Below are positions 4,717 through 45,903 of a stretch of DNA of 64,000 nt, in pieces (the first letter of the stretch is position 1; each line of letters opens with the position of its first letter). The position numbers and the translations under genes are program-made. Location: positions 1-64,000 of IMG/VR virus record IMGVR_UViG_3300046733_001096, one strand, 5' to 3'. The DNA comes from a virus. The notes under the pieces are model-generated. The model did no database searches, was not told the DNA's origin, and saw nothing but the letters and a program-made list of their open reading frames with translations.

Positions 4717-5832
4717 CTATAGTTTAGTAGTCGAGTTTGCATATACCGAATTGAATTGATTATTTACTCTAACAAATGTTGTACACTTTGTCAACTGTTT
4801 TAATTTTTCAGCACCTGCATAAGTACAAGTTGATCTAACACCACCTAATATTTCCTGTATAGTAATATTAACTTCTCCACGAAACGGTACTAGAACTTCA
4901 CGGCCTTCACTACTGCGATAGTCTTTTAGTCCACCAAAATGCTTTGTGTTTGCTGCATCGCTACTCATACCATAGAATTTAATAAACTTTTTTTCTTCTA
5001 TCTTACGTACACGATTATTTAAATGATTGCCTACTTCATATTCTAATTGATTTGTTTCATAATATCTTGTAATAACATCACCACCGCCTTCAATGTGACC
5101 AGCAAGCATACCGCCAAGCATCACAAAGTCCGCTCCACCTGCAAATGCTTTTGCTACATCACCAGGACAAGTGCAGCCACCATCCGCAATGATATGGCCA
5201 CCAAGACCATGAGCAGCATCAGCGCACTCAATAACAGCGGAAAGCTGAGGGTAACCAACACCAGTTTGGATCCGTGTTGTACAAACACTTCCAGGGCCGA
5301 TGCCCACTTTAACAATATCTGCGCCATTTAGTATCAACTCCTGTGTTTGATCCGCAGTAACAACGTTTCCAGCAATGATTGTTATCCTAGGATACATCAT
5401 ACGAAAATCAGCAACAAAATTAGTAAAGCGTTCACTATACCCATTCGCTACATCAATACATACATAATTTAATTCAGCGTATTTACTTACCTCTTTGAAT
5501 TTTTTTAGGTCATGTTCGCCAATACCAATACTCATTGCTATGTTTTTTTTGTAGTCTGTATTTGAGTTGAAGAACTCGATTAATTCTTCAGAAGTATATG
5601 TTTTTACTAGGCACGTAAAGATATTTTGTTCTGCTAGTGTTGACGCCATAGCAAATGTTCCAACACCATCCATATTGGCTGCCATAATAGGTAACCCACT
5701 ATAATCAATGGTGCTGTTTCTAAATGTAAACTGTCTATTCAAGTCTACATCTTTACGAGATCCTAATGTACTGCGTTTAGGACGAATTAACACATCACTA
5801 TAATCTAGTAATACTTCATTCTCAATGCGCAT
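4717..5832 (-). CDS. guaC: GMP reductase
   Basis: [29 protein letters not shown] catalytic Cys loop, FYGMSS, YRSSEG. Confidence 0.95.
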
Positions 5833-6422
5833 TATATGGTTGCCTCTACTTCTTCGACTTGACCATGTTCATTACACTCAACAACAGTAACTGGACAATG
5901 AATTTCAATGAAGTTATCAATGAATTCCCATCCAAGTGCTTCTACACCTTCTTCATATTCTTCGTTATATGCTTCTTCAATTTCTTCCATCATTTCGTCA
6001 GTATCAGAAAGTTTAGGACCACCTGTTCTGATATCCCAGTCTTCCCAACATCCATCCCAACATTCAAGCATTTCTGCATCGTAGTCTTCTGTCAGGTCAA
6101 CGAAAGCGTCTTCAGTGCTTGGTAGAAGATGTTCTTCAAGTGATGGCGATTGAGTAATAATATCATCATCTCCCCAATAGTCAGCGAGATAATGTGCTAC
6201 GCTCTCATATTCACCACGTTCTTTTAGGAACTCTGTGATTTCTTCTTCCGTATCTGGAACTGAAATCATGAATGATCCCCAACGCCATCCTAATTCTTTA
6301 CGCAGATACGCAAACTTGCCCTTGTGTTCGTCATTGCCAGTTAGTTCTTCTAATGGACGACGAAAAGTTGTTAGTTCAACTACAGACTTTTTGTAAGTTG
6401 GTTCAATTCTATAATGTTTCAT
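5832..6422 (-). CDS. Acidic hypothetical protein
   Basis: 196-aa ORF, stop/start coupled to guaC. Confidence 0.6.
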
Positions 6423-9045: not shown

Positions 9046-9435
9046 TCATCGGCGCATACTTGCAATATCTTTTGCATCTTCTTTTTTATCTGCAAAGATA
9101 GGAACCATATTTGATTTGTGCATTGTAGCAATTCCAAGTAGTTGTCGTTCACCACTGTAGGTATGTGATTCTTTTGCAGGACCGTGTGATGCAATTTTGT
9201 TACTCAGTTCAACATTTGGCTTGTTCTCTGTATAATCAGGAATATGGCTCATGTGCTTGCGCTTGCCATATTTGTCATACAATTTCCCATCAAGTTGATC
9301 TTGACTTACACCCATCTTGCGCATAAACTTTTCGTGTTCTACTTCGGCTGCTATAAGTTTCTTTGATTTTTTCTTGACTTTGCGCTTACGTGTGTTTGTA
9401 GTATTGTAAGCATGTCCCATTAATTGCATTGTCAT
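9046..9435 (-). CDS. Conserved phage hypothetical protein
   Basis: C-terminal YSGERQLLGIATMHKSNMVPIF motif resembles small proteins of T4-like marine phages (recalled); promoter upstream at ~9471-9499. Confidence 0.65.
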   Translation of the reverse strand: MTMQLMGHAYNTTNTRKRKVKKKSKKLIAAEVEHEKFMRKMGVSQDQLDGKLYDKYGKRKHMSHIPDYTENKPNVELSNKIASHGPAKESHTYSGERQLLGIATMHKSNMVPIFADKKEDAKDIASMRR

Positions 9436-9601
9436 TATTATGCTCCGTAGTAAATTTGACTGTTGCCGTTAATGTATCATAACTGATTCTGATTGTCAAG
9501 AGTTAATTTTTAAAATACGTGCAGTTAATTTGAGTTAACTACCACTAAATACTGTTGAGAGAATAAAAATGAGAGAAACTAGTAATTACTAGGAGAGGGT
9601 A

Positions 9602-10063
9602 ATGATTGATCCAGTAACCGCCATTGGCTTGGCGACTACTGCTTTTAATGGTATTAAAAAAGCTATTGAAACAGGGAAAGAAATATCTGATATGGGGACG
9701 CAACTTGGGCAATGGGCAAAGGCCAAGTCCGACTTAGATTTTGCACACCAAAAAGCAAAAAACCCCCCACTATTCAAAAAAGTGCTTAGTTCTAATATAG
9801 AACAAGATGCCTTGGAAGCATGGGCACATAAGAAAAAGGCAGAAGAAATGCGTGAGGAATTACGGCAGTATATTTCTCTATATTATGGGCCATCGGCTTG
9901 GGATGAAATAGTAACTATAGAATCTAAAATGCGCAAACAACGTAAAGAAATGGTTTATGCTGCTGAAGAACGTAAAGAAATGATTTTTGCTTGGATCATA
10001 GGTGGTGGTATTTTTATATTCGCTGCTATTATTTTTGCTATCGGTGTATCATACATTACCTGA
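9602..10063 (+). CDS. Phage membrane-anchored coiled-coil protein (MIDP.TA family)
   Basis: Strong RBS GGAGAGG, CTAAATAC box at 9545-9552, C-terminal TM helix. Confidence 0.7.
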   Translation: MIDPVTAIGLATTAFNGIKKAIETGKEISDMGTQLGQWAKAKSDLDFAHQKAKNPPLFKKVLSSNIEQDALEAWAHKKKAEEMREELRQYISLYYGPSAWDEIVTIESKMRKQRKEMVYAAEERKEMIFAWIIGGGIFIFAAIIFAIGVSYIT

Positions 10064-10068
10064 TAAAC

Positions 10069-10461
10069 TTACTTACAAAGTCCTGCAATCATTTGATAAT
10101 GATTCCATGCTTGCTTTACTGATGGTAAGTTTTCTAAATCATCAACTGGGACTGCACAATCTAACCAAACATACGGAACTATTGGGAAACTATCGATTGA
10201 TCCTGAAGCACGTGGCATATGCAACTTTCCCAAATCATCTAATGTTATAACTAATTTTCTAAATTCATTTGGTAATTTGTCATATATATTACGTGATCCC
10301 TTGATACCATCTAAAAAAGAATGCCAAGCACGATCCCATTCACTTGTCTTTCTGGGATCAAATCTATATATCCTAACCATAATAACTAATACTTCGTCTG
10401 GCGTAACACGACCCTCGTATAAGTCAATTAGACATTGACTAAAATTCATTCCTATTTTCAT
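10069..10461 (-). CDS. Hypothetical protein, paralog of 10458..10865
   Basis: Shared C-terminus P.VK.AW.HYQ..AGLCK and similar N-terminus. Confidence 0.7.
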   Translation of the reverse strand: MKIGMNFSQCLIDLYEGRVTPDEVLVIMVRIYRFDPRKTSEWDRAWHSFLDGIKGSRNIYDKLPNEFRKLVITLDDLGKLHMPRASGSIDSFPIVPYVWLDCAVPVDDLENLPSVKQAWNHYQMIAGLCK

Positions 10462-31533: not shown

Positions 31534-32790
31534 TTATAATTTTTGTTTAACCTTCGCTTGTTCATCGAATACCAATATTGGTTCTTCATTTCCTAAAATA
31601 AATTCATCTGTAATATGTACAGAACGTAGTCCTTGATTTGCCAATTTTGGCAATTTGAATTGTATTTGTAAAAGTGATTTTTCAATTACACTTCTCAATC
31701 CTCGAGCGCCCGTTTCATCTGTTGTTGCTTTTCTCGCAATCTGGTTTAGCGCCGAATCTGAAATGATTAATTCTACACCATCAAGTTTAAACAATTTTTC
31801 AAACTGTGCAACAATACTATTTTTAGGCTCAGTTAATACTTGTACTAACTGATTTTCAGTGAGAGCATCAAGGCCAACAATAATTGGAAATCTTCCCATA
31901 AATTCTGGGATGACTCCATATTTTATTACATCCTGTGCTTCTACTTGCTCACGGATATTTATCTTATTTGTCGATTTATCATACACAACAGCACCAAAAC
32001 CAATACCTGCATTGGATGTTATTCTACGTTCAATAACTTTATCAATGCCAACAAATGCGCCACCAACTACAAATAGAATTTTACTTGTATCAACTTCAAT
32101 CATATCAGTGCCTGGGTGCTTACGTCCGCCCCCAGGCGGAACACGAACAACTGAGCCTTCTACAATTTTAAGTAGTGCTTGTTGAACACCTTCGCCACTA
32201 ACATCTTTTGTGATTGAAATATTTTCGCCTTTTTTCGCTTTCTTATCAATTTCATCAATATATATAATACCACACTCGGCTTTTTTAACATCAAAATCTG
32301 CTGCCATAAGCAATTTCTGTACTACATTTTCTACATCGTCGCCAACATATCCACTTTCAGTAAGTGATGTTGCATCAATTTGTGCAAATGGCACATCTAA
32401 AAATTTTGCAACTGTTTTAGCAAGTAATGTTTTACCAGTACCAGATGGTCCCATAACCATTACATTGGATTTATCCAATTCAACGCCATCAGAATCATCA
32501 GCGTTTATACGTTTGTAATGATTATATACTGCCACACTAAGGACTTCTTTAGCTTCGTCTTGTCCAATAATGTGCGCATCTAAGAATTCTTTAATATCTT
32601 CCGGTCCAGGAAGAGAACTCATATCCGTTTCGCTTGTAGTGGCAAACTTTTCTTTTGAGTCATGTATGATTTCATAGCATAAGTCAACACACTCATTGCA
32701 AATAAACTGATTTGGTCCAGCAATGAGTGTTTTAACTATATCCTTTTCTTTGTTACAAAATGAACAAGTATAATCTTTAGTATCAGTCAA
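31534..32790 (-). CDS. clpX: ATP-dependent Clp protease ATP-binding subunit
   Basis: CSFC..C..C zinc domain, GPSGTGKT, GYVG pore loop, DEIDK, RKHP, IGF loop, TGARGLR. Confidence 0.96.
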   Translation of the reverse strand: MTDTKDYTCSFCNKEKDIVKTLIAGPNQFICNECVDLCYEIIHDSKEKFATTSETDMSSLPGPEDIKEFLDAHIIGQDEAKEVLSVAVYNHYKRINADDSDGVELDKSNVMVMGPSGTGKTLLAKTVAKFLDVPFAQIDATSLTESGYVGDDVENVVQKLLMAADFDVKKAECGIIYIDEIDKKAKKGENISITKDVSGEGVQQALLKIVEGSVVRVPPGGGRKHPGTDMIEVDTSKILFVVGGAFVGIDKVIERRITSNAGIGFGAVVYDKSTNKINIREQVEAQDVIKYGVIPEFMGRFPIIVGLDALTENQLVQVLTEPKNSIVAQFEKLFKLDGVELIISDSALNQIARKATTDETGARGLRSVIEKSLLQIQFKLPKLANQGLRSVHITDEFILGNEEPILVFDEQAKVKQKL

Positions 32791-32802
32791 ATATCACCTA
32801 TA

Positions 32803-34173
32803 TTATTTCTTGTCTAACCAGCCTTGACGCTGTACTAGACTTGTGTTTCGGTTTCTAGTTTTGTCTTCTTCAGTTAGTTCGTTATCCTTTTCTTCCATAC
32901 TAGTATCGTCTAAATTAGTATGAATGTCAAGTTCTTTTTTGTCTTTTTTTGAAAATAGTGCATCGAAGATTTCTTCTTGGCCGCCTCTGCTTATATGACG
33001 ATTTTGAAAACTATAGTTTGCAGAAATTAGTAACAATACTGCTAATGGATCAAACACAAAAATGAATACAATAATTAGCCAACGAACTGCATCATCTATT
33101 GTATTTCTTTCTGTATTACCATAAACTAGTTCTGCAATATATTTAATTGGTCCAATTTCTGCTTCTAACATACGCACTTCAGTTTCTAATTCAAATTTAG
33201 TAACTAGTAATTCAGATATGCCAATTTCAGATACTTTGACTGTTTCTAATAATTCTGTAATTTTTTTAGTATTATCTATTTCTGCAACACGTTCTAATTG
33301 TTTGCGCAGCCTTGTAATAGTTTCTTGTGATTTTTGGACATCACGGTCGGCAATAGAACGCAGACGTTTTATTTCAATTCTTGCTTGTTCTATAGCTGAC
33401 GTATCAATACTTGTACGGATATCTTCTACAATACTAACTAAACGTTGCTTTTCTGATTGTTGTATTGAACGAAATTCATCAACTTTATTTGCAGTGCGAG
33501 GACCATAATTGCCATCCGTCTTAACACCAACTAATGCTTGCAATTTTTTAATTTCATCATTTACAACAAATGATTGTAGATTTTCAAGTGTGATATCTAT
33601 TTTTTTAATTTGTGTTAAGTATGATTCGACTTGGTCTTCTGATCCAGTTTGTTGGTCTAAGATAATAGCAAGTTGTTCATCGATTGCAGGTTGAACTCTT
33701 GCGTATGCTTGGTCCATACGTTGTTGTTCAGTATCAATCTGCGTTTGAATTTCATCTGTATTATTTGTATTCTGAGTTTCAAGTTTTTCAATCTTAATTT
33801 CTGAACGTGTAATAGTATCTTCATAACGAACTATATCATTATCTATACGTTCTACACGTGCCTGCGATTGTAAACTTTCACTTGCCTGTTCTAAGTGCGC
33901 ACGTGACAAAAAGCCAAAAATGCCCATCGAAGTGATGAACATTAATACAACTACTGCAAATGTAAGATAAGATTTTAATAGAAACGGCGCACGTTTCCAA
34001 TTACGGTAGACCCAAGATGCAGCAACTAACTTGCCTATTTCTAAAGATCCAGCCATGATAGCAACTGGTATTGCTGATGCGGCAAAAATTGCCATAAGTC
34101 CGGCAACTGAAAACCATGCTGCAACCGCGGCTATAGTTAAGGCTACTACGAATACCAAAAGTGGGAAAAACAT
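32803..34173 (-). CDS. Multi-TM coiled-coil protein with internal peptidoglycan-binding-like motif
   Basis: 3 N-terminal TMs, long coiled coil, LQALVGVKTDGNYGPRT, C-terminal TM VFDPLAV. Confidence 0.65.
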   Translation of the reverse strand: MFFPLLVFVVALTIAAVAAWFSVAGLMAIFAASAIPVAIMAGSLEIGKLVAASWVYRNWKRAPFLLKSYLTFAVVVLMFITSMGIFGFLSRAHLEQASESLQSQARVERIDNDIVRYEDTITRSEIKIEKLETQNTNNTDEIQTQIDTEQQRMDQAYARVQPAIDEQLAIILDQQTGSEDQVESYLTQIKKIDITLENLQSFVVNDEIKKLQALVGVKTDGNYGPRTANKVDEFRSIQQSEKQRLVSIVEDIRTSIDTSAIEQARIEIKRLRSIADRDVQKSQETITRLRKQLERVAEIDNTKKITELLETVKVSEIGISELLVTKFELETEVRMLEAEIGPIKYIAELVYGNTERNTIDDAVRWLIIVFIFVFDPLAVLLLISANYSFQNRHISRGGQEEIFDALFSKKDKKELDIHTNLDDTSMEEKDNELTEEDKTRNRNTSLVQRQGWLDKK

Positions 34174-34243
34174 TTTACTCTCCTAAGGATAATTACAGCC
34201 CTCTTCATCTGTATTTATCATTTTGGAGAGTAAGATTCATATA

Positions 34244-34747
34244 TTACATATCTACATTTAAGTATACAGTAGTGCCCTTTTTAAACCACTGTTGTGTGTA
34301 TAAACGAACTGTTTGTCCACCAATATCAACAGTTACCATGTTGTCGCCACGTACTTGTGATACTTTATTAGTATATGTTGTGCGACATTGACGTTCTTGA
34401 CGATATCCTACAATAACAGTTTCTTGTTTACCTTTTTTATTAACTTTATCAGCACCAATAATGGCACCTAAAACAGTCATTGCATCTTTGCCACTACCGT
34501 TACCAAGTTGATTACCGATTGCACCGCCGATAATTGCACCAACTAGGGCATCACCAGAACTTGCTTGTCCAGTTCGGCGTGTCTCATAAATTGGAACATC
34601 TACATTATTACAAGTTTGAATTGGAACTTCACGGACAACATCACGATATGTTTCTTTCATTCCTATTACAGTTCCCCGAACCTGTTCAGAATATGAAGCA
34701 GTTGCAGTTACTAGAAGTGCAACAGTTAGTGCCATAATATTTTTCAT
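34244..34747 (-). CDS. Glycine-zipper 2TM envelope protein (YcfJ-like)
   Basis: Signal peptide; GAIIGGAIGNQLG.GSGKDAMTVLGAIIG. Confidence 0.8.
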   Translation of the reverse strand: MKNIMALTVALLVTATASYSEQVRGTVIGMKETYRDVVREVPIQTCNNVDVPIYETRRTGQASSGDALVGAIIGGAIGNQLGNGSGKDAMTVLGAIIGADKVNKKGKQETVIVGYRQERQCRTTYTNKVSQVRGDNMVTVDIGGQTVRLYTQQWFKKGTTVYLNVDM

Positions 34748-35473: not shown

Positions 35474-35812
35474 TTAATCATATTGATCTAACAAATTTGT
35501 TTTATCTTCTGTGTATCCTTTAGAAGGATTAACATCATCTGCTCCAGGTAATGGTTCTTTCTGGTCTACAATTACTTCCCATTGCTCAGACCATTTCGCA
35601 TTGATATCATATAACCGCTGTGTGAATAGTGGATCGGTATCTGCTATAATTGCATCAGCAGGACATTCCGGTTCACAAACGCCACAATCAATGCATTCAT
35701 CTGGATTGATTACTAACATTTCTTCACCTTCATAAAAGCAATCTACTGGACAGACTTCTACACAATCAGTATACTTACATTTAATGCAATCCTGAGTTAC
35801 TACATAGGTCAT
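35474..35812 (-). CDS. fdxA: 7Fe ferredoxin (FdxA type)
   Basis: [26 protein letters not shown]...[12 protein letters not shown]. Confidence 0.95.
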
Positions 35813-36008
35813 CGTGGTTCTCCGTTAATTATATCGTCTATCTAATTTGAAATTGCTATTATAGTCTATAGTAAATGAAAAAGTAGTTATTGTCAAGTAC
35901 TTTTATCAAGTATCCATAATTTACTACAATAATAACATGCTGTCCATGGTTTACTATATCATCATCCGTATATTGATTATGTAATTATGGTATCTCTCTT
36001 GTTGTAGA

Positions 36009-36701
36009 CTATCCATGTTTTTTACTTTGAACTTTCATTTTTCTTGTTTGCCATGGCACTGTATCTTCAAACATATTCACAACTTCGTCACCTTGATATG
36101 CTTCGATAAGTTTCCACCAAGGCACAATTAACAAGTGTGATTTGAGAATCATACGTTCATTTTCTGTATCATTTACAATACCATGATAGCGATTTACATT
36201 TAAAAAGTTAGGATTAAAATATTCATGTGTTTCTAATTTTTCACCGACACTATGCGTTCCGTCTTCTTGTTCCAAATGTTCATAAAAACTTATTTCTGTT
36301 TTGCCGCGCAATGGGGTATTGAATGCACTTAGTGCTCTAAAGTGATGTGCAGTATGCGGCTCTAAATTACCGCCAGGAGGCATCCAAATAAATGTAAAAC
36401 GCATACAGTGTTTAATTTCATCCCAATTCAATGTTACACCGCAGTTATTTGCAATGTTTGTAATCCTTTGAAATATTTCATTCCAAATTTGAATGTTACA
36501 GTCATAGCAGACATTGTAAATTTTTTGCTTGGTGCTATCCATTCCTACCGTACCGTGATCGCCAAATTTGTCTTTAATTTTTTGGTCAAAGAAGTTATTG
36601 AGTTCGTCTTGATCTGCTAAAAATCCATCATAACCTTTGGTTTCAGCAAACCTATCCTCATATCTATATCTTAGTTCGTTCACTTTATTCCTCCATAACA
36701 A
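36009..36701 (-). CDS. Fe(II)/2OG-type oxygenase with HxA metal motif
   Basis: MPPGGNLEPHTAH...YHGIVNDTENERMIL double-stranded beta-helix pattern. Confidence 0.6.
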   Translation of the reverse strand: MLWRNKVNELRYRYEDRFAETKGYDGFLADQDELNNFFDQKIKDKFGDHGTVGMDSTKQKIYNVCYDCNIQIWNEIFQRITNIANNCGVTLNWDEIKHCMRFTFIWMPPGGNLEPHTAHHFRALSAFNTPLRGKTEISFYEHLEQEDGTHSVGEKLETHEYFNPNFLNVNRYHGIVNDTENERMILKSHLLIVPWWKLIEAYQGDEVVNMFEDTVPWQTRKMKVQSKKHG

Positions 36702-37543
36702 TGTTCATAATCAAAACTTAATCTATACAAATAACGATCACCTTCTACTGCATTACGTTTATGAATACTATGAAACTGATCCATAAAAATAAAATCGCCA
36801 GGCTGCCAATCGTCATGGTGCCAAATATATTTGTCTTGGAAAATATGTGCCATTAGTTTGTCAATAATAAGTTCTTTATCCAACTTCTCTTCTGGTTTGT
36901 CTCTTAACCACATCTCTCTAATATAATGAAATGTAAAATATAATCCTTCGTCCCCATCGTATGGATGCGTATATACCAAAGGCTTTGTTACGCCATATTT
37001 AAAATCTCTTGTGGCACCTTGAAACATTTTAAGTTCTTTATCGTCTTTGTCTAAGTCATAGAATGTTCCATTTTCAAATTTAAATGTACAATCTATTTGC
37101 TTATAGAAATTTTTATCTTCATCACATAAATCTTTGTATGCTTGTCTTGTGTCACAAAAACTAGTTACACTATTTTCGCCTGGTCTGACACAGTAAAGAG
37201 CCACACAGCATTCTTTACCACTTTTCCTGCCATTGCCATTACTATGCCAGTCTAATTCTTTGTCTGCAAAGATACCAATCTTGTCGCCATCTTTGCGTTC
37301 GTTTGTTACTCTAAACAAACCAGGATAATCTGGGTGCATAAAAAATTGATTTGGTTTAAGTACATTGCCAATTAATTCACATACTCTTAGTATACCAGAT
37401 TCATCTAGATTTTGATTTCTAACGAGTACTACATTATCTTTTACAATGTTTTTACCCCAATCTCTAATTTCTGAGTCACTCATTGTGTTAAAGTCTACGT
37501 TATATTGCACAGCATCCATTTGCATTAATTCTCTTCTCCTCAA
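36680..37543 (-). CDS. TauD/TfdA-family dioxygenase
   Basis: VVLVRNQNL, LDWHSN, TSFCD, PLVYTHP, WQPGDFIFMD...HKR...RYLYR. Confidence 0.8.
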   Translation of the reverse strand: MRRRELMQMDAVQYNVDFNTMSDSEIRDWGKNIVKDNVVLVRNQNLDESGILRVCELIGNVLKPNQFFMHPDYPGLFRVTNERKDGDKIGIFADKELDWHSNGNGRKSGKECCVALYCVRPGENSVTSFCDTRQAYKDLCDEDKNFYKQIDCTFKFENGTFYDLDKDDKELKMFQGATRDFKYGVTKPLVYTHPYDGDEGLYFTFHYIREMWLRDKPEEKLDKELIIDKLMAHIFQDKYIWHHDDWQPGDFIFMDQFHSIHKRNAVEGDRYLYRLSFDYEHCYGGIK

Positions 37544-37548
37544 TTTAT

Positions 37549-38043
37549 TTATGATAATATTATACTAACTGCATTTTCTACTGTGATATACTCTGTAGTG
37601 GATATATTAGGATACTTTTGTAATATGCGTTCAGTTCCTACATATCCAAAATGAGTATATTTTAAATTTAAAGGTGTGTCTAGATTAATCAAATCATTGT
37701 GCAATACACGTAATGATTTTTTTTGTATTTGATATTCTAGTAAATGTTCGTAGTTTTTTAATATAGTTTCATCTTCTGCTACATTACTACCAACATTAAT
37801 TATTGTTTTGTTAGTATCTTTAAATGCATGGAACAAATCTAATAACATATAAGTTTGTCCAAACCCATCATGTGCATTGTTTATAAAAACATCAACGTCA
37901 TTGCATTGTTTAATAATACGTTTTCTGTCAATACGGTTATTAATGTCGTAGCTAGTACTTTTACTAAATCCAATAAAGTTTACAACTGATTCAGATATAG
38001 CTTTTCCTATACCCGATGTATGTCCTGTTATTGCGTATTTCAT
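37549..38043 (-). CDS. Short SDR-like oxidoreductase
   Basis: ITGHTSGIG, DVFINNA, IINVGS, Y..QK. Confidence 0.75.
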   Translation of the reverse strand: MKYAITGHTSGIGKAISESVVNFIGFSKSTSYDINNRIDRKRIIKQCNDVDVFINNAHDGFGQTYMLLDLFHAFKDTNKTIINVGSNVAEDETILKNYEHLLEYQIQKKSLRVLHNDLINLDTPLNLKYTHFGYVGTERILQKYPNISTTEYITVENAVSIILS

Positions 38044-38618
38044 CTATCACCTAATATTGTAACTACTAAATGTAATCTTTCATCCGTACTACCGTTAAAT
38101 GCAGTATGAGGAACAACTGTATTTGTCCAATACCATTGATTTTGCTTTAGATGTTTACTTTCGTTTTCGATTACCATATAACACCCGTCTTGTGTTTTTA
38201 TTGGATAATGTAATCTTGGAGTGTTATCGTTATGCCATGTTAAACAAGTCTTTGGTCTAGAATTCATTATTCGTATTCTACCAACTTTGTATTTTTTAGT
38301 TATACTATTGTATACATCTTCGAACAATGAATCTTTAAATCCTGTACAAAGTACTTCAAAACTATCATCTTTCAAAGGAACTTCTCTACGAGGTACTATA
38401 ATTTTTCCGTGTTCAGTTGTGTAAGAGTTGTCCCAATCTAAAAATAAACTTCCTCTTCCTGTTAGGCAATTTGACGGATCGTCTTTGGTTGCATTTAAAC
38501 AAATTTGATCTTTGTCATTTTTATACCACCAAATCTTTTTTTCGTTGAGTAGTTTTAAAAACTCTGTATGCAAATCATATACAGGAAGATCGTTAAGTTC
38601 GACAAAATTCATTTGCAT
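38040..38618 (-). CDS. Aspartyl/asparaginyl beta-hydroxylase-like Fe/2OG oxygenase
   Basis: GRIRIM...WHND..RLHYPI...HTAFNGS..RLHLV. Confidence 0.75.
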   Translation of the reverse strand: MQMNFVELNDLPVYDLHTEFLKLLNEKKIWWYKNDKDQICLNATKDDPSNCLTGRGSLFLDWDNSYTTEHGKIIVPRREVPLKDDSFEVLCTGFKDSLFEDVYNSITKKYKVGRIRIMNSRPKTCLTWHNDNTPRLHYPIKTQDGCYMVIENESKHLKQNQWYWTNTVVPHTAFNGSTDERLHLVVTILGDR

Positions 38619-39349
38619 TAGTTCTTTTCTCCTACTAGTATTTTATTTGGAGTTTCACGGTCACTGTTAACATAATCTCTCCAAAGTGTTGCGTTTTCAA
38701 GTTCTTGTTCATATTCTTCTTGTGTATATTTGCCAATACTAAAGTTACCATCTAAGTCCCAAACGTCTGCTACAAAATGCCATCTATCAGTATTACTTCT
38801 ATTTAAAACATTGTGGTATGGATGTACATATGCAAGATAACTATTTCCCTCTTCAAGTATGTAACTTTCGTTCCCATGAATAAAATCAGTGCCTGCATCT
38901 GTTATAATAGGAATATGGAATCTATAAAAGTTACCATCAGTATGCTTTTTAATTTCTCCACTTGGATGAATATATGATAGTCTTGCTCTTCTAGGATTCA
39001 TATTTTTTTCATGTAGAAAATCTAAGATTTCTTTAAAATATCCAGTACATGCACTTGTTTCTATACTATAGTCTAACATGTGATAAATTTTATGTTGCCT
39101 AGCATAGTCTAAATTAAAATATACTTTCGGATCAGGATCTGTCATATCTTGTTCATCATATCGCGGATATTGTATTTCTACATTAAAATTGAATCCGCTT
39201 TGCAAAGAACCGTCTTGACTAGATAATGCAATACCATGTAATCCACCATCTCTTTGTTCGTTAACATTGTTATACTCTAATATACGATACAGTTCAGACT
39301 TTAATCTATCTTTGTTAAACTTCCAATCATTTTTTACCACATGAGTCAA
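38618..39349 (-). CDS. Aspartyl/asparaginyl beta-hydroxylase-like Fe/2OG oxygenase
   Basis: RARLS.IHP..EI.KHTD..RFHIPI...HNVLN.S..DRWHFV. Confidence 0.8.
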   Translation of the reverse strand: MTHVVKNDWKFNKDRLKSELYRILEYNNVNEQRDGGLHGIALSSQDGSLQSGFNFNVEIQYPRYDEQDMTDPDPKVYFNLDYARQHKIYHMLDYSIETSACTGYFKEILDFLHEKNMNPRRARLSYIHPSGEIKKHTDGNFYRFHIPIITDAGTDFIHGNESYILEEGNSYLAYVHPYHNVLNRSNTDRWHFVADVWDLDGNFSIGKYTQEEYEQELENATLWRDYVNSDRETPNKILVGEKN

Positions 39350-40005
39350 ATCAGCAACCTTTCTTTGTTTGGTAAATTATCATAATCCACTCCAAATATT
39401 AAAACGATTCTAGTGTTATCGCTACTGTTTGTTACTCTATGTAACCAACCTGTATTAACAAAATAGCTTTTACCTCTTTGCATATCCAAACTAATTTCTT
39501 CGGTTTTTGTTTTCCATTGGAACAAACTTCCGGCTGTATTAACAGGTATTTGTACTCTACACAACACACTTGTATCAGTATCTATATGATAGTTTAGTTC
39601 ATTGCCTCCATGCATAACACTTATACGTGCTCTATAGGGTGCGTTAAATTTATCTTTAAGGTATTGTTGTATAGCAGTTGTTTTTAAATCATCTCTCCAA
39701 CTGTTATAATTTTTTTCATCAATTTCACTGTCCGCATTGTTATCTAGTTGCTGCAATAGTATTTGACTGTATGTTTCACTAGCAGTAAATGCACTTTTAA
39801 CATCACAATGTTGTGATATCTGATAATTGTCACCGCCCAAATCATTACCTGTGTAGTTATTGGCAATTTCCAATATCTCATCTAACACTGATTCGGGAAC
39901 GTTATCTGTTACTTGTCCGTGAGTTTGCATCTGATGCCTACGTGGTCCATTTTTACCACTTACTCTGCTTCTTCTTGTATCGTGTATAAGGCAATTATCG
40001 GTCAT
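39346..40005 (-). CDS. Aspartyl/asparaginyl beta-hydroxylase-like Fe/2OG oxygenase
   Basis: RARIS...YHID...RVQIP...LHRVTN...RIVLI. Confidence 0.78.
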   Translation of the reverse strand: MTDNCLIHDTRRSRVSGKNGPRRHQMQTHGQVTDNVPESVLDEILEIANNYTGNDLGGDNYQISQHCDVKSAFTASETYSQILLQQLDNNADSEIDEKNYNSWRDDLKTTAIQQYLKDKFNAPYRARISVMHGGNELNYHIDTDTSVLCRVQIPVNTAGSLFQWKTKTEEISLDMQRGKSYFVNTGWLHRVTNSSDNTRIVLIFGVDYDNLPNKERLLI

Positions 40006-40585
40006 AATTTTCCTTCCATTTTTGAATACTTATACTTTTTAAAGGCAGGCTATAATTATTAGAACAAATAACTTGCCAACTTGCAGGATCATCGTCCTGT
40101 GGATAAGTTTGATACAGTCCTTCTAAGACTTTCCATTCATTTTGTTTCTTATATTTATTGTTTAGTTTTTCGGCTAACAATGCCAACGTTCCTCGTCTAC
40201 GTTGAAACTCCACACTGAAAAATAATCTGGTAATATTATTTTGTTTTGCCCATTCTAATTGTGGATCTAACATTAGTGTTGCTGGTGTTTCAGTATCTCT
40301 TTCATAATTCATATTTTTACGTCTGTATTGTGGATTGTAATATGTTCTAGTTAGTAATCTTGCACAACCTTCTGGAAACATATGAGTTTGTACACAACTC
40401 ATAGCAATCATTTCATCATTATCTTCTACTAGGAAAGTCCATAGTGGATATTTTTTATATCGGTTTGGTATGCTCCATGCTAGATTTGGATTGAACCAAT
40501 CTTTATTTCTATCATTATTTGCATAAAATTTCTTACAGTAATGTAAGAATTCCAACTCATAATTTTCTAATGTAAGTATTTTCAT
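39995..40585 (-). CDS. Putative GNAT-fold acyltransferase
   Basis: MIAMSCV, ARLLTRTYYNPQYRR, LEWAKQNNITRLFFS pattern. Confidence 0.5.
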   Translation of the reverse strand: MKILTLENYELEFLHYCKKFYANNDRNKDWFNPNLAWSIPNRYKKYPLWTFLVEDNDEMIAMSCVQTHMFPEGCARLLTRTYYNPQYRRKNMNYERDTETPATLMLDPQLEWAKQNNITRLFFSVEFQRRRGTLALLAEKLNNKYKKQNEWKVLEGLYQTYPQDDDPASWQVICSNNYSLPLKSISIQKWKENYDR

Positions 40586-41241
40586 TTTTTAACAAACGCA
40601 GGATCAAGCCATTCGTTTAATGTATCAGGTCTAGAAACTACTACAATATAATCTGCGTTGGCTTTAAGTTTGCTATATGCGTCAGTCAACTGGCCTTTCC
40701 ATGGAGCACCTACGCAGAGTGTAATCTTTTCTTGTGGATCAGGATCAATACTGTGAGCATGACTTCCATCTAATACGTAACTATCATAGTTTCCTGGCAT
40801 GTAAACTTTGTTTAGTTTTTTATCTAAAAAATATAGTTTATTAATAGCACCATTTAGCACTAGTCTATATTTGTCCTGCAATGTACCAATTTCTTCTTTT
40901 GTACTGTCTAAATGTGTATGTAATCCTGTATTAGGAGCAGTTCGTAGAATTGTAACTCTACCCGGAGGCTCCATCCATGGAAATATTTTTTCTTCTAATA
41001 CATGTTGCATAACAGGACATTGATTGCCGGCTGACGTATAATTAAATTCACCGTTTGTAGTATTATGATTGGGGTCCCTACCACCTAGTCTACCACCACC
41101 GTTCCATATTGCAATCATTCTGCAACCTCTGAATTCATTGTAGTGGTGCACATCATCAGAAAGTGCAAGCACTTCATCAAGCATTGCTTGTTTCTCTTCT
41201 TTAGTTACACCTATGTCAACTGCACCAAACGTAAATTTCAT
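40582..41241 (-). CDS. Fe/2OG oxygenase-like protein
   Basis: GRVTILRT.P..GLHTHLD...DGSHAHS. Confidence 0.6.
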   Translation of the reverse strand: MKFTFGAVDIGVTKEEKQAMLDEVLALSDDVHHYNEFRGCRMIAIWNGGGRLGGRDPNHNTTNGEFNYTSAGNQCPVMQHVLEEKIFPWMEPPGRVTILRTAPNTGLHTHLDSTKEEIGTLQDKYRLVLNGAINKLYFLDKKLNKVYMPGNYDSYVLDGSHAHSIDPDPQEKITLCVGAPWKGQLTDAYSKLKANADYIVVVSRPDTLNEWLDPAFVKK

Positions 41242-41249
41242 GTTGCCTC

Positions 41250-41972
41250 TTAATTAGTTTTGATTAATTTAATAAACCATTTAGTTGGATCAAACTGCCA
41301 CCATTCTTGTCCAATAGCCCAACTGCCTGCCCGTCTGTGATGATTTTTGTGCCAACCTTCACCTGCTGTTAAGATATTTGCTATCCAACTATTATTAGGT
41401 TGAGCACCTCTGTGTCCTAGTATATTAAGTATTCCATATCCATGAAATGCTAGTACAACCGGTATTGCATATCCAAATATCATAAACAATGGATCAATTG
41501 CTGTAAACAATATAATAATGGCAATATTTAAATAAAAGTAATATTTGTGGAACCATCTTAGGATTTTGTCTTGTAATAAACGTTTAATGAATTTGCGTTT
41601 AATTTTAAAACCATATCCCCATGTGTTTACATATACTGCCCACATACCTTTGACACTGTGACTGTGTGGGTCTAGTTCTGTATCACTATGAGCATGATGT
41701 TGTCTGTGTGTAGCAGCCCAAGTCATTGCAGGACCAGCACCAGCAAACATACCTAATATATTTACTGCCCACGGATACCATTTGCCTGTTTTAAAACTAT
41801 TGTGCGAATAGTATCGGTGATAACCACCACTAATTGCTACAATTGCGATAATATACCACCAAAATAAAGATATAGAAAACATCCACAATTCACCATATAA
41901 AAATGCTGGAATCAACATTACGTGACAAAATGTATGATTTATAAGTAATTTTGTTGTATTTTCCATATACAC
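41250..41972 (-). CDS. Membrane fatty-acid desaturase (Delta-9/DesC-like)
   Basis: His boxes HRYYSH, HRQHH, GEGWHKNHH; DPHS; WWQFDP. Confidence 0.92.
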   Translation of the reverse strand: MYMENTTKLLINHTFCHVMLIPAFLYGELWMFSISLFWWYIIAIVAISGGYHRYYSHNSFKTGKWYPWAVNILGMFAGAGPAMTWAATHRQHHAHSDTELDPHSHSVKGMWAVYVNTWGYGFKIKRKFIKRLLQDKILRWFHKYYFYLNIAIIILFTAIDPLFMIFGYAIPVVLAFHGYGILNILGHRGAQPNNSWIANILTAGEGWHKNHHRRAGSWAIGQEWWQFDPTKWFIKLIKTN

Positions 41973-41975
41973 TTC

Positions 41976-42347
41976 CTAATAATTCATTTGTGATTCAGTT
42001 GAGTTGTATTCTGCCTCTGTTATAGTCTCGATGTCACTTATTACTAAATATTCATCAAATGATTGCAATAACATTGTTAGATCATAATGCATAGCAGATG
42101 CGTGATTCTCATATCGGTAGTAATTGGTCTGGACAACCCTACAACCGTCATCTATTCTGGTAGTTTTTCTATTATCACTAGTTTCAAGCTCTTCTTCATC
42201 AGCTAGCCGATCTAACAGTTTAGTGAACTTAGGTAAACCAATTTTTTCTTCAAACCACACCAGGTATTGGTCATGTGTTTTTCCATCGGGGTAATCTATT
42301 GTAACTGTAAATTTATATGCCATTTTTGTTTTCCTTTTGTTCATCAT
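41976..42347 (-). CDS. Hypothetical protein
   Basis: Operon context. Confidence 0.5.
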   Translation of the reverse strand: MMNKRKTKMAYKFTVTIDYPDGKTHDQYLVWFEEKIGLPKFTKLLDRLADEEELETSDNRKTTRIDDGCRVVQTNYYRYENHASAMHYDLTMLLQSFDEYLVISDIETITEAEYNSTESQMNY

Positions 42348-42762
42348 GCCATTTACTATATCTGTCTACTGCAAGCATAAGTGTATTATGTGTATCATCA
42401 AACCAATCTTGAACACGATAGTCTATATTAATTGGTGGTTGAAATATTTGATTAGTATCATCATATATGCTTTCTTTGATGGTGTCCATCCATACTACGA
42501 AATCTGCATTAAATGCTTTTCTATTTTCATCCAATGGACAGATAAAGTCTGCAACAACAGTTTTTCCGGCAAGTTCAATTCCATCTGCTAAATGACGCAT
42601 ACGTTCTGCTTGTCGTATACGTCCTTGTATACTAAAGTCCCAATCATCATACATTGTTCGCACATTATCTGCATTTAGCCATACTCCATTAATTAGTTTT
42701 GAAAAGGGTTCGGCCAACGTCGATTTGCCACTTCCTGGTAATCCACAAATTAATATTTTCAT
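42313..42762 (-). CDS. Adenylyl-sulfate kinase-like P-loop kinase
   Basis: GLPGSGKST, NADNVR, DFS..GR, DFICP, FQPP. Confidence 0.75.
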   Translation of the reverse strand: MKILICGLPGSGKSTLAEPFSKLINGVWLNADNVRTMYDDWDFSIQGRIRQAERMRHLADGIELAGKTVVADFICPLDENRKAFNADFVVWMDTIKESIYDDTNQIFQPPINIDYRVQDWFDDTHNTLMLAVDRYSKWHDEQKENKNGI

Positions 42763-43181: not shown

Positions 43182-43214
43182 ATTGTTTTCCTTTGTGTTT
43201 ATGTGTGTGTGTAG

Positions 43215-43481
43215 TGTAACTATTCTGTTGCTAGGTCAGTTACCAACCCCCACGTGCTTAAATTAAGCCGCTAATGCCATTTCTGGCGCATAATTTGCGT
43301 TTGCAATTATAAAGTTTGTTCGCGGTAACGGCGCTTACATCCCGGTAACTCCATTCATCTATCTTGTCAGTCGATCCTAGTTCAGCCCCATCAAAAGCAC
43401 ACTTATCTAAATGTGTTTATGGTGGAGCTGCGCGGTACTGCCCCGCGGTCCTGTCCAATCATCAAATCACTTCAACGTTAC
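43215..43481 (-). ncRNA. ssrA: Circularly permuted (two-piece) tmRNA; tag ANANYAPEMALAA at 43263-43304
   Basis: T-arm CGCGG-GGCAGUA-CCGCG and CAGCUCCACCA (ends 43420) precede a 30-nt spacer and the GGGGCUGAA..GAUCGAC end (43389); resume context AUAAUU-GCAAAC; tag ends LAA-stop. Confidence 0.93.
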
Positions 43482-43487
43482 ATTCTA

Positions 43488-43516
43488 TTTATAACATATT
43501 TTAATAGCGTTGTCAA
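43488..43516 (-). promoter_or_regulatory. tmRNA promoter (sigma70 plus overlapping TATAAATA box)
   Basis: TTGACA-N17-TATAAATA. Confidence 0.75.
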
Positions 43517-43519
43517 TAG

Positions 43520-43547
43520 AAAAGGCAGTGCGTCGATTCACTGCCTT
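43520..43547 (-). terminator. Terminator after 43554..44525
   Basis: AAGGCAGTG-N8-CACTGCCTT plus U-tract. Confidence 0.7.
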
Positions 43548-44624: not shown

Positions 44625-45203
44625 TCAAGTGTTAAATTTATTCTTAATAATTTCAACCACTCTGTCAGATAGAACTATCTCATAATGATTTCTATCTACT
44701 TCTGCATATTCTATATCGTCACGGCAAGTCATACTTTTACGTGTGACAATACCATCATTCTTACCTGATATCCATGGTACATCGCCAACTGTTGTGACTA
44801 CCTGAAGCCAATTACACGAAATATCAATATTACGACTGCCTCTGATAAATCTACTATGTGTTGTAATGTCACTAAACATTTCATAGCCTGAAAAGAACTT
44901 CATAGAAGCACCCCACACAGCAATCTCACTGCCATTAAAAGGTGTTGCCAAACTAACAACATTCTTTATTGTATCAAATTCACTTTGTAAATAAGTTGCA
45001 TATACACCGCCAAGACTATGTGCTATTACAAAAAATTCATCGTCTATATTATTTAAAGTTTCCATCATTATAGCAAGATTATCAATTGCTGCAGTATATT
45101 TACTATAATTCAAATATATAGGATCTTTACAATTCAACGATTTCTGAATGAAGGCAAAACTTCGTTCACTTGCAGTTGCACCATGTATATACACTATTCT
45201 CAT
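44625..45203 (-). CDS. Alpha/beta hydrolase
   Basis: YIHG, AHSLGG, LATPFNGS, NDGIV, NH. Confidence 0.85.
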   Translation of the reverse strand: MRIVYIHGATASERSFAFIQKSLNCKDPIYLNYSKYTAAIDNLAIMMETLNNIDDEFFVIAHSLGGVYATYLQSEFDTIKNVVSLATPFNGSEIAVWGASMKFFSGYEMFSDITTHSRFIRGSRNIDISCNWLQVVTTVGDVPWISGKNDGIVTRKSMTCRDDIEYAEVDRNHYEIVLSDRVVEIIKNKFNT

Positions 45204-45207
45204 TCAT

Positions 45208-45903
45208 TCAAGTCCTGATAATGTTATGCTTGCGATCCATAAACATCTTTGCTGTTTCAACTGCTACTGCTGCATCCCTGCAATACGCATCTGCGCCAAT
45301 TGCTTTTCCAAATTCTTCATTCAATGGAGCACCTCCTACTAATATAGTATAATCATCACGCATACCCTTTTCAGTCATTACATCAATAACAACCTTCATA
45401 TATGGCATCGTTGTTGTAAGTAACGCACTCATACCTAATATATCTGGATTATGTTCTTCAATTGCATCAAGGTAAGCCTGTACATCATTATTAATACCAA
45501 TGTCATATACATCAAACCCAGCACCTTCCATCATCATGCCAACTAGATTTTTGCCAATGTCATGTATGTCACCTTTAACTGTACCGATAACCATAGTTCC
45601 AACTTGTGGTGCACCAGTCTCAGCAAGAAGCGGTTTGAGAATAGACATTCCACCTTTCATTGCATTTGCTGCTAGTAATACTTCTGGAACAAATAATATA
45701 CCATCACGGAAGTCTATGCCCACAATAGTCATTCCAGCAACTAATGATTCTGTCAATACACGATATGGTTCCCAACCACGTTCTAAAAGAATATTAGTAC
45801 CGTCTTCGACTTCCTCTTTGAGTCCATCGTAGAGATCATCCCCCATTTGAATTACAAGTTCATCATCAGATAACTCTGACAATATAATATCATCATCTTC
45901 CAT
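45208..45903 (-). CDS. Stand-alone corrinoid (B12)-binding protein, cap + cobalamin-binding domains
   Basis: FVPEVLLAANAM, GTVKGDIHDIGKNLV (DxHxxG), SALLTTT, VGGAP. Confidence 0.92.
   Translation of the reverse strand: MEDDDIILSELSDDELVIQMGDDLYDGLKEEVEDGTNILLERGWEPYRVLTESLVAGMTIVGIDFRDGILFVPEVLLAANAMKGGMSILKPLLAETGAPQVGTMVIGTVKGDIHDIGKNLVGMMMEGAGFDVYDIGINNDVQAYLDAIEEHNPDILGMSALLTTTMPYMKVVIDVMTEKGMRDDYTILVGGAPLNEEFGKAIGADAYCRDAAVAVETAKMFMDRKHNIIRT

Follow-up and report, generated by a model that had tools for sequence, protein, structure and literature searches.

A conserved desaturase, GNAT-fold and AspH-like gene cassette in an uncultured marine phage, a candidate pathway for fatty-acyl tailoring

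This report gives an account of a gene cluster in a marine virus. The window, i.e., the whole stretch of DNA that was analyzed (64,000 nucleotides), comprises the initial 64 kb of an IMG/VR viral contig of 78.9 kb (record IMGVR_UViG_3300046733_001096; completeness ~31% per CheckV). Its source is an uncultured marine phage: the phage identity is clear from tail-fiber and virion proteins with Mtd_N, DUF7483 and several PHROG structural families. The GC content is ~35%, and the minus strand carries nearly all genes. We focus on nine co-oriented genes on that strand (36009-41972), running from a membrane desaturase to a protein with the fold of a 2-oxoglutarate (2OG) oxygenase, which we call oxB. 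At the center of this block lies a conserved core of three genes, in the order desaturase > GNAT-fold protein > AspH-like hydroxylase. The nine genes are given below in the order of transcription, together with the match or model by which each was assigned.

41250-41972, minus strand: desaturase, a compact membrane di-iron enzyme of the SCD/DesC type, 240 aa (Pfam FA_desaturase, PF00487, 4.9e-13)
40582-41241, minus strand: oxA, a divergent AspH-like cupin (linked by structure and by hidden Markov model (HMM); no Pfam or PDB sequence match)
39995-40585, minus strand: GNAT-fold (acyl)transferase, an orphan (AlphaFold model, mean confidence (pLDDT) 91; Foldseek and VIA matches; no Pfam match)
39346-40005, minus strand: ahx1, a 2OG-type hydroxylase of the AspH/LpxO family (Pfam Asp_Arg_Hydrox, PF05118, 3.2e-8, 34 bits vs cut-off 22.6)
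38618-39349, minus strand: ahx2, an AspH-family paralog with HTD, accessory (Pfam Asp_Arg_Hydrox 6.2e-10, 39.6 bits vs cut-off 22.6)
38040-38618, minus strand: ahx3, an AspH-family paralog with HND, accessory (Pfam Asp_Arg_Hydrox 2.9e-9, 37.4 bits vs cut-off 22.6)
37549-38043, minus strand: mini short-chain dehydrogenase/reductase (SDR)-like protein, 164 aa, accessory (invariant motifs; no Pfam match, NCBIfam SDR matches faint, E 0.03)
36680-37543, minus strand: TauD/TfdA-family (PF02668) protein with WHSN (Pfam TauD 1.1e-29, 104.6 bits vs cut-off 27)
36009-36701, minus strand: oxB, a 2OG-oxygenase-fold protein (AlphaFold model from a 12-sequence alignment, pLDDT 86)

The gaps between these nine genes range from -22 to +8 nt. 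An earlier sequence-only reading of this DNA had listed nine contiguous, mostly overlapping genes in this order, and they are present exactly so; its fold and family assignments are all backed by a profile, motif or structure result. Upstream, a kinase-like gene and a small open reading frame (ORF123) are coupled likewise, and from the kinase-like gene through oxB the gaps are -35 to +8 nt. Including both flanks, the transcription order is kinase-like > ORF123 > desaturase > oxA > GNAT-fold > ahx1 > ahx2 > ahx3 > SDR-like > TauD-like > oxB > ferredoxin. Four of the cluster genes (oxA, GNAT-fold, SDR-like and oxB) have no Pfam or PHROG match, and the same holds for NCBIfam, save for faint SDR matches, while the motifs HLD, HID, HTD, HND, HSN and HTA can be read in the translations. 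The block is a single transcription unit around a conserved three-enzyme cassette, with four oxygenase-fold proteins (oxA, ahx2, ahx3 and oxB), a TauD-family protein and a mini-SDR added to it.

The desaturase is the one member of the set with a narrow known chemistry. Its Pfam score is 49.9 bits (cut-off 29.7), and it aligns with human and mouse SCD1 (4zyo, 4e-8), the histidine boxes HRYYSH, HRQHH and HKNHH as well as N183 and H187 being kept and in register with 4zyo. Ten residues are invariant in 16 relatives (H52, H57, H89, H92, H93, N183, H187, H208, H211 and H212), which we take to match the full metal-ligand set of SCD1, and the DPHS and GEGWHxNHH motifs are retained. It is also the sole cluster protein with hydrophobic transmembrane-like segments. 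By family, it is of the SCD/DesC type, and delta-9 desaturation of an acyl-CoA or acyl-lipid is its putative activity.

The second core protein was recognized by its predicted fold. The best Foldseek matches of the model are all GNAT proteins (TM score 0.42-0.52), and so are the top 50 matches in VIA, with Z up to 10.9 (root-mean-square deviation (rmsd) 3.1, 144 residues). Its family counts 380 representative clusters at 50% identity, and Acetyltransf_1 is touched, weakly, by 2 of 62 relatives. Searches of PDB sequences with oxA, oxB and the GNAT-fold protein, singly or as profiles, gave nothing useful; a deep profile of the GNAT-fold family has a single PDB match, again a GNAT protein, at E 0.009. 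Judged by the model, this protein thus belongs to the GNAT superfamily by fold, without sequence-family membership. In the third core protein, ahx1, the motif H140-I-D142...H189 is invariant in 14 relatives.

How firmly these genes belong together was assessed with two IMG/VR searches. With the TauD-like protein as seed, 35 loci were obtained; in ~20 of them, the desaturase, the GNAT-like gene, ahx1 and TauD occur together, often with oxB and oxA. To avoid circularity, the second search was seeded with an alignment of the desaturase and returned 163 viral loci (with the single desaturase sequence as query, one close relative only). Family HMMs were then run on the best 80 of the 163, and the desaturase was found in 78 of these. 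Within 3 kb of it, a GNAT-like gene occurs in 58 of the 78 loci, an AspH-like cupin in 67, and both in 55. The triad desaturase > GNAT-like > ahx1 also stands alone, in overlapping frames, in ~15 loci. Among the same best 80 loci, the accessory genes are counted as follows: TauD 40, ahx3 26 (often on the opposite strand), oxB 20, oxA 19, SDR 17 and ahx2 8. Because co-occurrence and order hold in the desaturase-seeded loci, we define the conserved core as the three-gene cassette desaturase > GNAT-fold > AspH-like. Beside this cassette, two to four tandem copies of a short desaturase are seen in several loci (L113-L115, L078-L080 and L108).

Across phages, the core order is kept at 30-60% protein identity. 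Conservation of gene order in relatives, on which the sequence-only reading had staked its proposal, is thus borne out by the synteny check, in which the core order recurs in dozens of independent viral contigs. That reading had gone further and seen an ordered tailoring pathway. The functionally linked set stands, but the order of steps cannot be read from the gene order, in which only desaturase > GNAT > AspH-like is stable. Relatives also carry extra genes, namely several radical SAM and B12-radical SAM genes, a DegT aminotransferase and nitroreductase-type flavoproteins, and in many of them the block ends at an Mtd_N tail-fiber gene. These extras are absent from the window's contig, save for a tail-fiber homolog at 64.3 kb.

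The cassette is not confined to viruses. A scan for the ahx1 motif over one genome per prokaryotic species matched only metagenome-assembled genomes (MAGs) titled Bdellovibrionales and one contig of a 'Rickettsiaceae' MAG. The GNAT-like profile is found in 24 of 201 sampled Bdellovibrionales genomes and is missing from all 400 genomes that were sampled in addition from the class of the 'Rickettsiaceae' MAG. In 12 Bdellovibrionales loci, on contigs of up to 3.0 Mb, the GNAT-like gene lies beside desaturase, AspH-like, HxN TauD-like, oxA and radical SAM genes, and the genes around them are those of a cell (FtsZ, a TRAP-transporter binding protein, subtilase, PurD and an ISL3 transposase). On one of these contigs (L138, 505 kb), a PF04116 fatty-acid hydroxylase and an HTTM-domain membrane protein adjoin the ahx1-GNAT-desaturase genes (9289-10176, 4948-6303). 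In a maximum-likelihood tree of the GNAT-like family, one branch (support 96/74; 93% of bootstrap trees) separates all 12 cellular rows from all phage rows, which speaks for an ancient divergence and against recent exchange. The 'Rickettsiaceae' contig (L042, CAWWAI010000058.1, 6.9 kb) carries a complete phage-type cluster with a desaturase 70% identical to that of the window, sits deep among the phage rows of the tree, and probably stems from a phage and was binned wrongly. A search for the T4 capsid family PF07068 had no match in three Bdellovibrionales MAGs and none in control genomes either, and thus says little.

These data also bear on the possibility that there is no common pathway at all. 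The block would then be a collection of independent auxiliary genes and old oxygenase paralogs in a hypervariable region, comparable to the dioxygenase arrays known from T4-like cyanophages, and every gene would have a host target of its own. The behavior of the accessory genes fits such a picture, as TauD, oxA, oxB, ahx2, ahx3 and SDR shift, drop out and reorder between loci, and the paralogs are old (27-30% identity). AspH-like genes are, moreover, core to pelagimyophages on their own (PMC7029224). The triad does not behave in this way: it keeps its order and overlap across ~60% sequence divergence and recurs in cellular genomes of an unrelated lineage, and the ORFs of the window overlap by 1-35 nt. 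We therefore regard independent genes as very unlikely. Because the triad is kept across such divergence, in overlapping frames, and recurs in an unrelated cellular lineage, a shared pathway for its three members is very likely.

Around the core, the oxygenase-fold proteins form a graded series. The Pfam cut-off of PF05118 is passed by ahx1, ahx2 and ahx3 and missed by oxA and oxB, which are joined to the family through HMM and structure links. The HxD motif and the distal histidine are present in oxA, ahx1, ahx2 and ahx3, and ahx2 shares 30% identity with ahx1 over 96 aa. In oxA, H110-L-D112 and H161/H163 are invariant, its ESM Atlas model resembles bacterial clusters of which 96-100% of members carry PF05118 (TM score 0.69-0.74), and it is matched by the ahx1 HMM at 1.5e-5. 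An hhalign comparison of oxA with ahx1 brings HxD and the distal histidine into register (E 0.003); between the cupin families, such comparisons give low probabilities (0.6-11%) and were used for motif register only. The sole NCBIfam match of the AspH-like proteins is a faint one to isoleucine dioxygenase, the presence of an LpxO model in that library being uncertain. All cupins of the cluster are soluble, without a transmembrane segment. The SDR-like protein, whose 164 aa fall short of what the profiles need, keeps TGxxxGIG, NNA, Ser86 and Tyr104-x3-Lys108 invariant in 7 relatives (T6-G7, G11, N55, S86, Y104 and K108).

The TauD-like protein, whose true start is probably an internal methionine (MQMDAVQY), as in relatives, departs from its family in one respect. 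In the alignment with its best PDB match, ScoE (2.4e-7), its H-S-N falls on the H-x-D of ScoE, so the facial triad HxD...H is altered, with Asp replaced by Asn and the distal histidine kept. This HxN (WH[SAT]N) is invariant in all TauD-like orthologs collected, i.e., those of phages (L003-L038), of the cultured Pelagibacter phage Mosig and of Bdellovibrionales (L134, L135, L138 and L143), whereas a second TauD paralog clade in the same loci keeps HxD. We found no described precedent for an HxN TauD clade.

In oxB, on the other hand, the motif is H116-T-A118...H173...R183. The 50 best VIA matches of its model are all Fe/2OG oxygenases, with ALKBH6 at Z 12.6 (rmsd 3.1, 168 residues), AlkB at 12.1, AspH at 10.2 and halogenases at 9.6-10.4. 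The ahx1 HMM matches oxB at 3.7e-7, and the oxB HMM matches an ORF of phage Mosig annotated as AspH at 1.4e-5. An HxA motif brings to mind radical halogenases of the SyrB2/WelO5 type. H-T-A is indeed present in the window protein and 8 of its 11 relatives, with the distal His and Arg kept, and HalB, CurA-Hal and WelO5 are among the structural matches. However, the residue is Ala in 9 of the 12 family members and Asn in the other 3 (H-V-N), and ~14 hydroxylase or demethylase entries outrank the halogenases in VIA. Profiles connect oxB with AspH-like proteins, and AspH itself is a protein hydroxylase that holds its iron with no more than two histidines (PMC6817910). As the position varies between Ala and Asn and the structure shows no preference for halogenases, a halogenase is not our first choice for oxB and appears extremely unlikely.

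Next to the block lie four further features, the first downstream and the other three upstream of it.

35474-35812, minus strand: 7Fe (FdxA-type) ferredoxin (Fer4 4.5e-9, DUF3470 9.3e-7, phrog_8732 1e-37)
41976-42347, minus strand: ORF123, an acidic protein, 3 nt upstream of the desaturase (no Pfam or NCBIfam match)
42313-42762, minus strand: P-loop kinase-like protein, APS_kinase/AAA_33-like (Pfam APS_kinase 2.7e-8)
43213-43520, minus strand: permuted two-piece transfer-messenger RNA (tmRNA) of the alphaproteobacterial type (Rfam alpha_tmRNA 128.9 bits, tmRNA_permuted 117 bits)

The ferredoxin and the APS-kinase-like gene had both been counted as members of the pathway, and in this respect the earlier view did not hold up. 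Neither these two genes nor ORF123 are conserved partners of the cluster. Among ~110 related loci, the ferredoxin is absent from all, and the sole kinase-like homolog, a distant one (in L036), lies ~9 kb from the TauD gene; ORF123, which falls into no known family, has no homolog in related loci. In the window, both Fe-S cluster cysteine motifs are visible in the translated ferredoxin, which is set apart from oxB by a 196-nt spacer that holds a promoter-like TTGACA-17-TACTAT, and it has its own Shine-Dalgarno sequence. A promoter and terminator scan was no better than shuffles (44 promoter-like sites vs 45 expected). In this phage, the downstream ferredoxin may act as electron donor to the desaturase. 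Matches of the ferredoxin and desaturase to 'Acinetobacter phage MD-2021a' were discarded as a mislabeled bacterial chromosome. The records of that name, CAKLQH020000002.1 and CAKLQF020000001.1 (L039), carry trpB, trpC, btuB, baeSR and aidB and look bacterial chromosomal.

The tmRNA, ~450 nt upstream of the kinase-like gene, encodes the tag ANANYAPEMALAA according to ARAGORN. Its alphaproteobacterial type suggests that the host, too, is an alphaproteobacterium. Other auxiliary genes aboard are IMPDH/GMP reductase, UvdE, PepA, a lipase, ClpX and a B12-binding protein. The latter, a stand-alone protein with a cap domain, and an alpha/beta-hydrolase (PGAP1-like) are encoded 2-3 kb upstream of the cluster (44625-45903, minus strand); in relatives, by comparison, B12-radical SAM genes sit inside the cluster. 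Downstream of the ferredoxin (31534-34747, minus strand) follow a glycine-zipper protein, a 456-aa protein with multiple transmembrane segments, for which a tetraspanin match stays below threshold (27.5 bits vs cut-off 32.1), and ClpX.

What, then, might the cassette do? The folds, the metal-ligand motifs, the tight coupling of the genes and their co-occurrence in phages and Bdellovibrionales are observations; the assignment of a substrate leans on the relatives of each protein. We favor the tailoring of a fatty-acyl compound, such as an aminolipid, a lipid A-like molecule or a lipopeptide, because SCD-type relatives act on fatty-acyl chains, the AspH family holds LpxO, OlsC and OlsD, the GNAT superfamily holds N-acyltransferases, and ScoE uses a fatty-acid derivative. 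We put the probability of this reading at roughly 45%, and it is thus offered tentatively. Also counted for it are the PF04116 fatty-acid hydroxylase in one cellular version and the proven delta-9 lipid desaturases of the DesC type in cyanophages (PMC5776448).

In the following scheme we infer that the substrate is an acyl compound, and likewise the sequence of reactions, what is made and how the phage gains from it. The enzymes would work at the inner membrane of the host cell during infection, on a molecule that bears a fatty-acyl chain. An amine would be acylated by the GNAT-fold enzyme, a double bond would be put into the chain by the desaturase, and the soluble cupins would hydroxylate the acyl chain or the head group, while the SDR would convert a hydroxyl into a keto group or the reverse. 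This would yield an oxidized, unsaturated N-acyl compound, i.e., an aminolipid, a lipid-A-like molecule or a lipopeptide. A role of the GNAT protein as a bacterial ceramide synthase, together with an Spt-like aminotransferase, was considered and dropped, as the class I/II aminotransferase in question (L040) is HisC/CobD-like and not Spt-like.

Critically speaking, several points weigh against the fatty-acyl scheme. The GNAT Q/RxxGxG/A loop for CoA binding reads RRRGTL here, and the glycine of the acetyl-CoA loop is not conserved. Pfam gives the GNAT-like family no signature, of the OlsB type or otherwise, beyond the two weak Acetyltransf_1 matches among 62 relatives. No acyl carrier protein (PF00550) was found in the window's contig or in the contigs of 5 relatives, all of which are fragments, and no acyl-CoA ligase or other acyl-activating enzyme was found. 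Two of the six oxygenase-fold proteins (the TauD-like protein and oxB) lack a carboxylate metal ligand, which makes their activity uncertain. Furthermore, the founding AspH enzyme hydroxylates proteins, the VIA matches of the GNAT-fold model that tie within 1 Z include protein N-terminal acetyltransferases, and the radical SAM, B12-radical SAM and DegT genes of relatives fit the tailoring of a peptide or a sugar equally well.

A peptide or protein might instead be the substrate. Hydroxylation of Asp, Asn or other residues would then fall to the cupins, and the GNAT protein would add an acetyl or fatty-acyl group to a ribosomal peptide or to a protein of phage or host (such as a lipopeptide akin to ribosomally synthesized and post-translationally modified peptides, a virion or tail-fiber protein, or a translation factor), with the desaturase editing the attached acyl chain, if any. 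Apart from AspH being a protein hydroxylase (PMC6817910), this agrees with Naa80, Ard1 and RimI among the top VIA matches of the GNAT model, with the nearness of the oxB model to AlkB and prolyl-hydroxylase-type enzymes, with the several radical SAM and B12-radical SAM genes in relatives, and with the many loci in which the cluster abuts Mtd_N tail-fiber genes. Nif11 leader-type domains also occur in some PF05118 clusters near oxA (18% of members, in one cluster). Yet the cluster holds no conserved small ORF resembling a precursor peptide, it does not adjoin tail fibers in the window, and the Bdellovibrionales versions have none. To our knowledge, moreover, there is no protein substrate for an SCD-type membrane desaturase. 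On balance, we find a peptide or protein substrate unlikely.

A sugar-type surface molecule, i.e., lipopolysaccharide (LPS), capsule or a nucleotide-sugar derivative, is the other target that the genes of relatives suggest. A DegT/DnrJ/EryC1 aminotransferase is found among them (4.5e-84), an aminotransferase annotated as ArnB lies nearby in phage Mosig, a NAD-dependent epimerase/dehydratase lies 3 kb away in one Bdellovibrionales locus, and LPS genes abound in the hypervariable cluster by which pelagimyophages recognize their hosts (PMC7029224). The window cluster itself, however, has no glycosyltransferase, nucleotidyltransferase or sugar aminotransferase, the DegT gene occurs in only 6 of 80 desaturase loci, and the invariant partner in the cassette is a desaturase of the fatty-acid type. 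Sugar tailoring therefore seems quite unlikely to us.

The cassette is probably a real but undescribed and widespread pathway; our literature searches found no published description of a desaturase-GNAT-AspH cassette. Single phage lipid desaturases and oxygenase arrays were already known as auxiliary genes. New are the fixed combination of desaturase, GNAT-fold and AspH-like genes, the delimitation of its core to three genes, the contrast between taxa, the TauD-like clade with HxN and the handle that Mosig provides. If the cassette does edit membrane lipids, it would give phages that infect abundant bacteria of the ocean a new means of host remodeling, and the sharing of the cassette with Bdellovibrionales would point to a common predator function. 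One could go further and suppose that marine phages and predatory Bdellovibrionales share an ancient envelope-editing cassette that makes or rewrites an N-acyl lipid, unsaturated and hydroxylated, in the membrane under attack or in their own, by means of an unrecognized family of GNAT-fold acyltransferases and a His-Asn-His TauD clade; taken as a whole, this is a speculative proposal with rather low odds. There are good handles at hand, as Mosig is cultured and carries a distant version of the gene set, and a core of just three genes lends itself to expression in another host. In addition, the invariant HxN of the TauD-like proteins is an oddity in terms of enzymology.

Among known systems, the nearest is that of Pelagibacter phage Mosig EXVC030M (MT647606), a cultured phage of an alphaproteobacterium and the only real relative among GenBank phages. 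Between 54.7 and 61 kb, it encodes an FA_desaturase (35% identical) and a TauD-like protein with HxN (34%), and also two AspH-domain proteins and an N-acetyltransferase-domain protein, on one strand and beside tail fibers. It differs in gene order and partners (aminotransferase, FMN reductase, peroxiredoxin and methylase), and its acetyltransferase is not detectably related to the GNAT-like family of the window. In pelagimyophages at large, an aspartyl/asparaginyl beta-hydroxylase is reported to be core to all, and a large hypervariable cluster to serve host recognition (Zaragoza-Solas et al. 2020, PMC7029224). In the pelagimyophage papers, these genes appear one by one, and neither a cassette nor a function is described for them (PMC7029224).

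The desaturase has its counterpart in the viral fatty-acid desaturases (vFADs) of cyanophages, which are of the DesC type, have three His boxes and are active delta-9 lipid desaturases, as proven in yeast, with ferredoxin proposed as donor (Roitman et al. 2018, PMC5776448). The window enzyme is likewise a phage-borne DesC/SCD-type protein with three His boxes. The vFADs, however, are host-like DesC homologs from uncultured cyanomyophage contigs, described without mention of an oxygenase or hydroxylase (PMC5776448), whereas the window desaturase is shorter (~240 aa), falls into a separate clade and is coupled to genes for a GNAT-fold and an AspH-like protein. When the phage collection was searched with it by tblastn, no cyanophage record came up, Mosig being the sole phage match besides two mislabeled bacterial records.

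In terms of chemistry, the closest parallel is the Ols/LpxO system of bacterial lipids. LpxO, OlsC and OlsD are lipid 2-hydroxylases of the AspH family (PMC12971839), and OlsB, OlsC/OlsD/LpxO and OlsE likewise combine an N-acyltransferase, AspH-family Fe/2OG hydroxylases and a membrane di-iron enzyme on one lipid (PMC12971839). The window proteins, by contrast, have no NCBIfam or Pfam match to OlsB-type or LpxO-type models, their di-iron enzyme is SCD-type rather than OlsE-type, and their cupins lack a transmembrane segment. For the TauD-like protein, the best solved and NCBIfam relative is ScoE (PDB 6dch), an isonitrile-forming TauD-family enzyme with a fatty-acid derivative as substrate. The match is weak (33 bits vs PDB; 47.6 bits vs an NCBIfam cut-off of 400), and ScoE has HxD where the window clade has HxN. 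Finally, T4-like cyanophages carry tandem arrays of 2OG-Fe(II) oxygenases, and share with the window several divergent cupin or 2OG oxygenase paralogs placed side by side in a hypervariable region, in both cases that of large marine myophages. The array in the window differs from these in being anchored on a conserved desaturase-GNAT-AspH triad, which is also present in Bdellovibrionales.

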